From positions 1,627 to 65,626 of the forward strand of contig JAOUIL010000007.1 of NCBI GenBank assembly GCA_029883975.1: 64,000 nt of DNA. The letters run 5' to 3'. The stretch is from Betaproteobacteria bacterium (GTDB taxonomy: Bacteria > Pseudomonadota > Gammaproteobacteria > Burkholderiales > SG8-39). Below the pieces are notes generated by a model, which was not told the DNA's origin, did no database searches, and saw only the letters and a program-made list of their open reading frames with translations. Positions 21,075 through 21,305 of this stretch are shown here, in pieces. The translations under genes were made by a program, and so were the position numbers. The first letter of the stretch is position 1. Every line of letters begins with the position of its first letter.

Positions 21075-21078
<4 letters not shown>

Positions 21079-21305
21079 CCGCGCTGGCGCGCCTGCAGCG
21101 CGCGCACGATCTCCCCCGGCTCCGGGTAGCGCGCGTCGCGATGCTTGGAGAAGATCAGCTCGCCGTCGCAGGCGACGTCGAAGATCCCGTTCTTGCCCTT
21201 GGCGAGCTCGGCCTCGACTCCCAGCGCCTGCCTGATCTCGGCAGCCAGACTGGCCGCCCGGGGCAGGTAGTTTCAGGGAACGCAGTAGGTGATGACGATC
21301 TTCAC
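21075..21305 (-). CDS. SelW/Rdx-family thioredoxin-like protein with in-frame TGA (candidate selenocysteine, CxxU)
   Basis: Hand translation from GTG 21305 gives [81 protein letters not shown]. It matches the Rdx/SelW-like layout: a beta-strand, then CxxC/U, then the RAxxLxxxL helix, then ...DGELIFSK...FPEP. G/C-dominated third codon positions continue across the TGA. It is not in the ORF track because of the TGA. Confidence 0.6.
21227..21267 (-). promoter_or_regulatory. SECIS-like stem-loop downstream of the in-frame UGA
   Basis: In the mRNA sense the sequence after the UGA is AACUA[CCUGCC]CCG[GGCGGCC]AGUCU[GGCUGCC]GAGAUCA[GGCAGG]. It has a 7-bp inner stem (one G-U) with the 5-nt loop AGUCU starting 21 nt after the UGA, plus a 6-bp outer stem. 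Confidence 0.4.

Follow-up and report, generated by a model that had tools for sequence, protein, structure and literature searches.

Does a TGA codon near the beginning of a short, unannotated reading frame end translation, or does it encode selenocysteine (Sec)? This question is raised by a locus in a 64,000-nucleotide stretch (hereafter the window) of contig JAOUIL010000007.1, which belongs to the metagenome-assembled genome (MAG) of an uncultured betaproteobacterium (GenBank assembly GCA_029883975.1). A prediction made from the bare sequence had proposed that the minus strand carries an unlisted gene of the Rdx/selenoprotein W (SelW) family, here called selW. An in-frame TGA would occupy the second redox position of its product, making the gene a candidate for a selenoprotein. 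The frame was found exactly as predicted. It opens with GTG 21305, encodes VKIVITYCVP, reaches the TGA at 21275..21273, continues for 65 sense codons (starting NYLPRAASLAAEI and ending QARQRG) and stops at TAG 21077..21075, and the predicted product has 76 aa and a mass of about 8 kDa. On the evidence given below, we consider it probable, at about 0.88, that selW is a functional SelW-like/Rdx gene for a small thioredoxin-fold redox protein and that the UGA at codon 11 is translated as Sec.

The base composition of the frame is that of a coding sequence. In a window with a GC content of 70.4%, the GC content of selW by codon position is 0.68/0.44/0.92, which is the coding signature common to the surrounding Pfam-supported genes. 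The third-position value is 0.90 for the codons ahead of the TGA and 0.94 for those that follow.

For profile searches, the TGA of selW was translated as Cys. The product scored 66.2 bits with Pfam Rdx (PF10262; gathering cut-off 22.6; E=3e-18), covering profile positions 1–72 of 74, and 54.5 bits with TIGR02174 CXXU_selWTH (cut-off 34.2), so that the proposed family assignment stands above the curated cut-offs of both models. The top-scoring NCBIfam model was NF041051 SelTWH_Campy, a Campylobacter-type SelT/SelW/SelH equivalog, with 84.5 bits over positions 1–69 of 70. This score misses the equivalog cut-off of 88 bits, and the window protein is a close relative of that group and not a member. 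Seven solved structures of the Rdx family were detectable by sequence (2fa8, 2ljk/MIEN1, 2oka, 3dex, 2obk, 2ojl, and 2p0g), with homology spanning residues 2–73 and E values from 2e-9 to 2e-4. In the alignments, YC-VP-TGA was matched with YC-TQ-C of 2fa8 and 2oka and with YC-EP-C of 2ljk. The TGA therefore lies exactly at the second redox position, the place given to it in the original prediction. When the TGA is read through, the predicted product is a full-length Rdx/SelW-family protein, for which homology to the solved structures suggests a thioredoxin-like alpha/beta fold.

The solved proteins, namely Atu0228 (2fa8), 2oka, 2obk, 2ojl, 2p0g, 3dex, and human MIEN1/C17orf37 (2ljk), are of the Cys type and have their redox motif at the same position as the window product. 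They carry CxxC, with extra termini and a length of about 105 aa, whereas the window product has 76 aa and is predicted to carry CxxU. They are also without the segment AASLAA, which encodes a hairpin in selW (2fa8 has RAGWMAQEI there).

Relatives of selW were collected by a scan in which each bacterial species was represented by one genome, and which gave 68 loci in at least seven phyla (n=69 in the alignment with the window). The loci span Burkholderiales, other Gammaproteobacteria-labelled MAGs, Gemmatimonadota, Gaiellales and other Actinomycetota, Thermoanaerobaculia and other Acidobacteriota, Phycisphaerae, Eisenbacteria, Krumholzibacteriia, and others. In every one of the 68 relatives, an in-frame stop occupies the position of the selW TGA, three codons after an invariant Cys. 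Codon 11 is TGA in 69/69 sequences and never TAA, TAG or TGY. In protein databases, the best matches were either N-terminally truncated, starting after the TGA, or full-length with W at the site, and one was CxxC (P0014). One of the truncated matches bears the Joint Genome Institute (JGI) name 'selT/selW/selH-like putative selenoprotein'.

The CxxW entries of the protein catalogue (P0001 and P0003-P0005; 21/149 of the representatives described below) have evidently arisen from translation of the TGA with genetic code 4 by metagenome callers. Such translation is a systematic artefact that disguises selenoproteins as normal full-length proteins.

Downstream of the TGA lies a hairpin of the selenocysteine insertion sequence (SECIS) type, GGCGGCCA-GUC-UGGCUGCC, with its 5' arm at 21258..21251, the loop nucleotides G21250, U21249 and C21248, and its 3' arm at 21247..21240. 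Published criteria for bacterial SECIS (bSECIS) elements are an apical loop of 3–9 nt, a stem of 4–16 bp, a G in the first two loop positions (usually as G[G/U]), a distance of 16–37 nt from UGA to loop, and a free energy of -7.5 kcal/mol or lower (PMC13188914). The check for such an element that had been proposed for this region gave agreement with all four published criteria: the loop has 3 nt and starts with GU, the stem has 8 bp, the spacing is 22 nt, and the free energy is -13.1 kcal/mol.

Comparative evidence for the helix was obtained from the 69-sequence alignment. The helix columns were paired in 96.9% of cells, versus 20–53% with slid partner columns. Compensatory double changes occurred in 4/8 stem pairs, the observed covariation was reached by 0/500 shuffles, and RNAalifold independently gave the same 8-bp helix. 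Ala codons (GCN) dictate four of the stem pairs, for which protein conservation alone could be a sufficient explanation. Three stem pairs link synonymous third-codon positions and show Watson-Crick covariation: columns 27-33 (CG 39, GC 28, UG 2, unpaired 0), columns 24-36 (CG 57, GU 4, UA 3, UG 2, unpaired 3), and columns 21-39 (GC 41, CG 7, AU 5, GU 2, UA 2, unpaired 12). Covariation at synonymous third positions cannot be produced by selection on amino acids. The G-U of the loop is supplied by the Ser codon AGT, which is invariant in 69/69 sequences and accounts for only 2/442 Ser codons (0.5%) in 23 confident window genes. Conservation of the UGA together with the covarying hairpin supports the candidacy of selW as a selenoprotein gene.

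Some features of the hairpin varied among lineages. In Actinomycetota/Gaiellales loci (e.g. L026-L068), one extra codon separates the UGA from the hairpin (17 nt vs 14 nt), and the stem variant CGAGUCUCG stands in place of CCAGUCUGG. Spacing and stem are thus lineage-specific, and the loop is invariant. In the window and in L077, the relative that is syntenic with it, a second, lower helix (CCUGCC ... GGCAGG) surrounds the SECIS hairpin within 21225-21275 of the minus strand, with a minimum free energy of -25.2 kcal/mol. This helix is not conserved in more distant relatives and was not predicted by RNAalifold.

Several results weigh against the translation of the UGA as Sec. The loose bSECIS consensus was passed by 16% of the 1,170 TGA trinucleotides in the window, 2.7% of the window TGAs precede a hairpin at least as stable as that of selW, and folding energy does not set the 96-nt selW region apart from shuffled sequence (z=0.63). 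Because of the 16% pass rate and the low z value, the hairpin as seen in a single sequence is weak evidence when taken alone, and we therefore relied on covariation. Rfam gave nothing at the gathering threshold, and the hairpin falls outside every curated Rfam SECIS family (RF01989 and others); the top score, to SECIS_3 at 21228..21266 on the correct strand, was 13.4 bits against a gathering value of 63 (E=2.4) and was not significant. The patterns of the genome scan included the peptide AASLAAEI, which biased the 68 loci toward SECIS-bearing forms and inflates the apparent invariance of the hairpin. Searches for the Sec machinery were also negative. With tblastn, E. coli SelA, SelB and SelD had no match in the window or in any of the 69 loci with their flanks of +/-10 kb. 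ARAGORN found no tRNA of any kind, and hence no tRNA-Sec, in the 64-kb window, in the extra ~21 kb of the 85-kb contig, or in the loci of the closest relatives, and precomputed Pfam annotation showed no sel genes in the flanks out to both ends of the contig. No further in-frame TGA flanked by coding signal was present in the window or the contig flanks. Finally, a 2026 review ranks the bacterial SelW-like proteins as 'predicted with high confidence' and not as experimentally shown (PMC13188914).

The conservation of the site was also examined independently of the motif, by searching 1.84 billion representatives exhaustively with HMMER, the query being the exact translation downstream of the TGA. 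The best 149 short matches comprised 97 that were truncated just after the site, 21 with W, 19 with CxxC, and 12 that were unclear. Read in this way, the Sec form is the majority state of the SelW-like subfamily, with ~118 predicted Sec-type versus 19 Cys-type representatives. This majority agrees with the counts of SelW-like sequences in the Global Ocean Sampling (GOS) data (427 Sec vs 56 Cys; PMC2398784) and in the Sargasso Sea (48 Sec vs 7 Cys; PMC1088965). In this family sample, which was not biased by motif, the loop codon was Ser, Gly or Arg, with G at the second position, in 42/45 Sec-type members versus 7/19 CxxC members (Fisher p=4.7e-6); the constraint on the loop therefore vanishes along with the UGA. 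One CxxC member, P0046, retains the full SECIS-encoded peptide CAPCNYLPRAASLAAT and may represent a recent Sec-to-Cys conversion in which the hairpin has not yet been lost.

In the unbiased search, the motifs of the hairpin region were more varied (e.g. RAAGLAAS, RAVRLADQ, and KAQVVASE), and the retrieval pattern is partly responsible for how nearly invariant the hairpin appears across phyla. A broader idea should be read in this light. The sequence GCC-GCC-AGU-CUG-GCG-GC, which imposes AASLAA on helix alpha-1, might be an unusually universal and portable Sec-insertion cassette, used across at least seven phyla with very different SelB proteins and kept by dual RNA/protein constraint or by horizontal transfer. 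It might also mark the use of selenoproteins beyond FdhA in aerobic, catabolically versatile Betaproteobacteria. We regard this idea as speculative and rather unlikely to hold.

The alternative that survives best is that selW is a relic. Its ancestry would be that of a true Sec gene, the Sec machinery would have been lost or never acquired, and translation would now either end at the UGA, after 10 codons, or pass it only through near-cognate insertion of Trp or Cys. This would fit the lack of sel genes, tRNA-Sec and a second selenoprotein candidate noted above, and a survey of 2006 recorded no selenoprotein family other than FdhA in Betaproteobacteria (PMC1794560). However, 85 kb is only a few percent of the genome, or about 2% for a genome of typical size, and the absence of sel genes from so small a share says little. 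The same survey found the Sec-decoding trait to be common in Betaproteobacteria (PMC1794560), and SelB homologues are present on Burkholderia and Caballeronia replicons. The sequence changes between the window and L077 also speak against a relic. The two genes share about 92% nucleotide identity (about 8% divergence), and they differ by 12 synonymous and 7 non-synonymous codon changes, with the final three codons accounting for three of the non-synonymous ones. The stem differs at one position, where a C-to-T change preserves the pair as G.U. L001 and L002, the other closest relatives (75–77% aa identity), have also kept the TGA, and purifying selection is apparent in the alignments on both sides of the UGA. 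In a genome with 70% GC, a dead gene should lose the TGA and the rare AGT loop codon; both have persisted, as has the pairing, since the divergence from L077, which argues for a gene in use. We therefore judge a relic to be improbable.

Another explanation takes the TGA as a true stop, with the downstream sequence and hairpin belonging to a separate, truncated protein or to a structured element or terminator at the 3' end that selW would share with the convergent Amidohydro_2 gene. Many database proteins do begin after the TGA, and the hairpin, itself GC-rich, is situated between convergent genes. In selW, however, in-frame ATG, GTG or TTG codons occur only at codons 1 and 67, so that the 65 downstream codons have no separate route of translation, and the truncated calls in other genomes are artefacts of gene callers. 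The hairpin has no T-run, and a consensus scan for promoters and terminators around selW found no terminator and no full sigma-70 promoter. Moreover, the 10 codons before the TGA encode the conserved beta-1 strand and its Cys and are under selection. This explanation is very improbable.

A nonsense mutation, in which the TGC or TGT codon of an ordinary CxxC Rdx gene became TGA in the window lineage, would need a single transversion from TGC, and CxxC forms such as P0014 and the 19 noted above do exist in the family. The original prediction had named TGC or TGT in close relatives, without a conserved downstream hairpin, as the sign of such a mutation. The opposite was found, since the 68 relatives, including L077, L001 and L002, carry TGA and a covarying hairpin across many phyla, never with TAA or TAG at the site, and the coding signature and purifying selection extend to both sides of the TGA. 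A pseudogene of this origin is scarcely credible. Equally hard to credit is a sequencing or assembly artefact or a genome-wide reassignment of TGA, for which nothing speaks beyond the presence of an in-frame stop: four further, independent metagenome assemblies contain the same strain with a selW region of 100% identity (five assemblies in all), so the TGA is no sequencing error, and TGA is the stop of 20/34 Pfam-supported window genes, so the codon has not been reassigned.

If the UGA is translated as Sec, the course of events can be outlined from the E. coli paradigm. Translation would begin at GTG 21305. At the UGA, the apical G-U-C loop of the hairpin 14 nt downstream would recruit SelB-GTP with Sec-tRNA(Sec), and Sec would be inserted in place of termination. 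The resulting protein would carry Cys8-Val-Pro-Sec11 at the point where strand beta-1 ends and alpha-1 follows in a thioredoxin-like fold. The Cys8/Sec11 pair would cycle between the selenol/thiol and selenenylsulfide states, and the protein would act as a thiol-dependent oxidoreductase. Incorporation of selenium and a redox role are suggested by the family and by the E. coli paradigm. Binding of SelB to the hairpin, and a dependence on SelB and tRNA-Sec, would be expected by analogy with the SECIS element of E. coli fdhF. As in that element, the hairpin of the window lies ~11-14 nt past the UGA, is in frame, and presents an apical G-U loop. Both have a GC-rich upper stem at the loop, GCA-GGUC-UGC in fdhF (taken from the K-12 genome) and CCA-GUC-UGG in the window. 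The bulged U of the fdhF element is important for binding by E. coli SelB. In contrast, the window hairpin has an unbroken stem of 8 bp and a loop of 3 nt (alternatively, 7 bp and 5 nt) and is without an equivalent of the bulged U.

SelW-like CxxU proteins entered the list of recognised bacterial selenoproteins in the mid-2000s and make up one of the commonest known families on that list. Members were reported from the selenoproteomes of the Sargasso Sea and GOS (PMC1088965, PMC2398784) and from surveys of genomes (PMC1794560). The window gene shares with them the fold family, the CxxU motif right after beta-1, a length of ~70-80 aa, a SECIS element inside the coding region right after the UGA, and the predominance of the Sec form. 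Nothing essential differs; the host of the window is an uncultured betaproteobacterial MAG with 70% GC from sediment- or estuary-type metagenomes. The MAGs of this organism that NCBI labels 'Betaproteobacteria bacterium' include GCA_029884575.1 and GCA_029859065.1, and the contig is also carried by the ENA assemblies ERZ27296339, ERZ27296438 and ERZ27296412.

The original prediction that the gene is unlisted was borne out. Contigs reach the locus in four assemblies, in each of which the gene callers left the 331-nt interval holding selW empty, and a catalogue of 5.8 billion proteins contained no full-length selW product. The coordinates of the gene, its elements and its neighbours are listed in Table 1.

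Table 1. Positions of selW, its proposed functional elements and the adjacent genes in the window.
Feature	Position	Strand	Remarks
Predicted SelW-like (Rdx family) selenoprotein coding sequence	21075..21305	-	76 codons including the Sec-UGA, plus TAG 21077..21075
GTG start codon	21303..21305	-	Aligned with ATG/GTG starts of relatives (MKIxITYC...)
TGC, Cys8, first residue of the C-x-x-U redox motif	21282..21284	-	TGC/TGT in 69/69 sequences
In-frame TGA, codon 11, proposed selenocysteine codon	21273..21275	-	TGA in 69/69 sequences
Bacterial SECIS-type hairpin	21240..21258	-	Begins 14 nt past the UGA; encodes (R)AASLAA
TACAAT, -10-like hexamer	21315..21320	-	9 nt upstream of the GTG; speculative promoter
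Amidohydro_2 (ACMSD-like) gene, convergent neighbour	20104..21078	+	Context only
MFS transporter, divergent neighbour	21410..22666	+	Context only

The intergenic region 21306..21409 (104 nt) is common to selW and the MFS transporter gene. The interval between the TACAAT hexamer and the GTG has no Shine-Dalgarno sequence. The hexamer is kept in L077, and L001 and L002 have TAGAAT ~13 nt ahead of their ATG. The arrangement may point to an mRNA with a short leader or none.

On the other side, the tail-to-tail arrangement that had been proposed was confirmed, as the TAG stops of selW and of the Amidohydro_2 gene overlap inside the palindrome CTAG (21075..21078). The name ACMSD given to this neighbour in the original prediction is plausible and not proven. 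The gene follows an nbaC-type 3-hydroxyanthranilate dioxygenase gene (equivalog, 257 bits), and the JGI name for the relatives in its cluster is ACMSD; its match is to Amidohydro_2, with no specific ACMSD match in NCBIfam. Among the gene neighbourhoods of the relatives, no neighbour was conserved across phyla, only L077 was syntenic with the window, and no functional clue was obtained. Two long open reading frames that overlap the locus, 20029..21384 (-) and 20130..21734 (+), were rejected as GC-rich artefacts with a codon-position GC content that is wrong for coding.

Other parts of the window showed features of their own. A small gene at 19249-19554 (+), between branched-chain amino-acid ABC transporter genes and the 3-hydroxyanthranilate dioxygenase gene, encodes an sll1863-family stress response protein domain (NF052504, 47.5 bits). 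The region 4166-12935 looks like an 'ebo'-type cluster, a kind of cluster whose product is poorly understood. It comprises Phosphodiest (4166-5551, -), EboA (5584-6441, +), TatD (6471-7397, +), a DHQ-synthase-like gene (9710-10897, +), an unassigned gene (10897-12090, +) and UbiA (12087-12935, +), and it is split by a GSDH/cytochrome c/TMEM220 insert at 7631-9709. The region 33000-63300 is a dense catabolic and transport block with several FAD_binding_2 flavoproteins, TctC/TctA parts of tripartite tricarboxylate transporters, a Rieske ring-hydroxylating oxygenase, an amidase, thiamine pyrophosphate (TPP) enzymes, and LysR regulators. Such a block is typical of Burkholderiales-like islands for the catabolism of aromatic compounds or organic acids.

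As described above, selW is a new, unannotated SelW-like gene that is well supported and of an ordinary kind. It leaves knowledge of the mechanism of Sec insertion unchanged and does not reveal the substrate of bacterial SelW-like proteins. The systematic mis-annotation of selenoprotein genes is well documented, and selW is a clean example of a selenoprotein gene missed by automated annotation in all assemblies of the organism that were examined. The 69-sequence alignment, with its covariation at synonymous sites, is a compact and exceptionally clean case of dual RNA/protein coding and could seed a covariance model for a SECIS class that Rfam lacks. For the organism itself, selW implies that UGA would be decoded as Sec in an uncultured betaproteobacterium, a member of a lineage once credited with Sec only in formate dehydrogenase.

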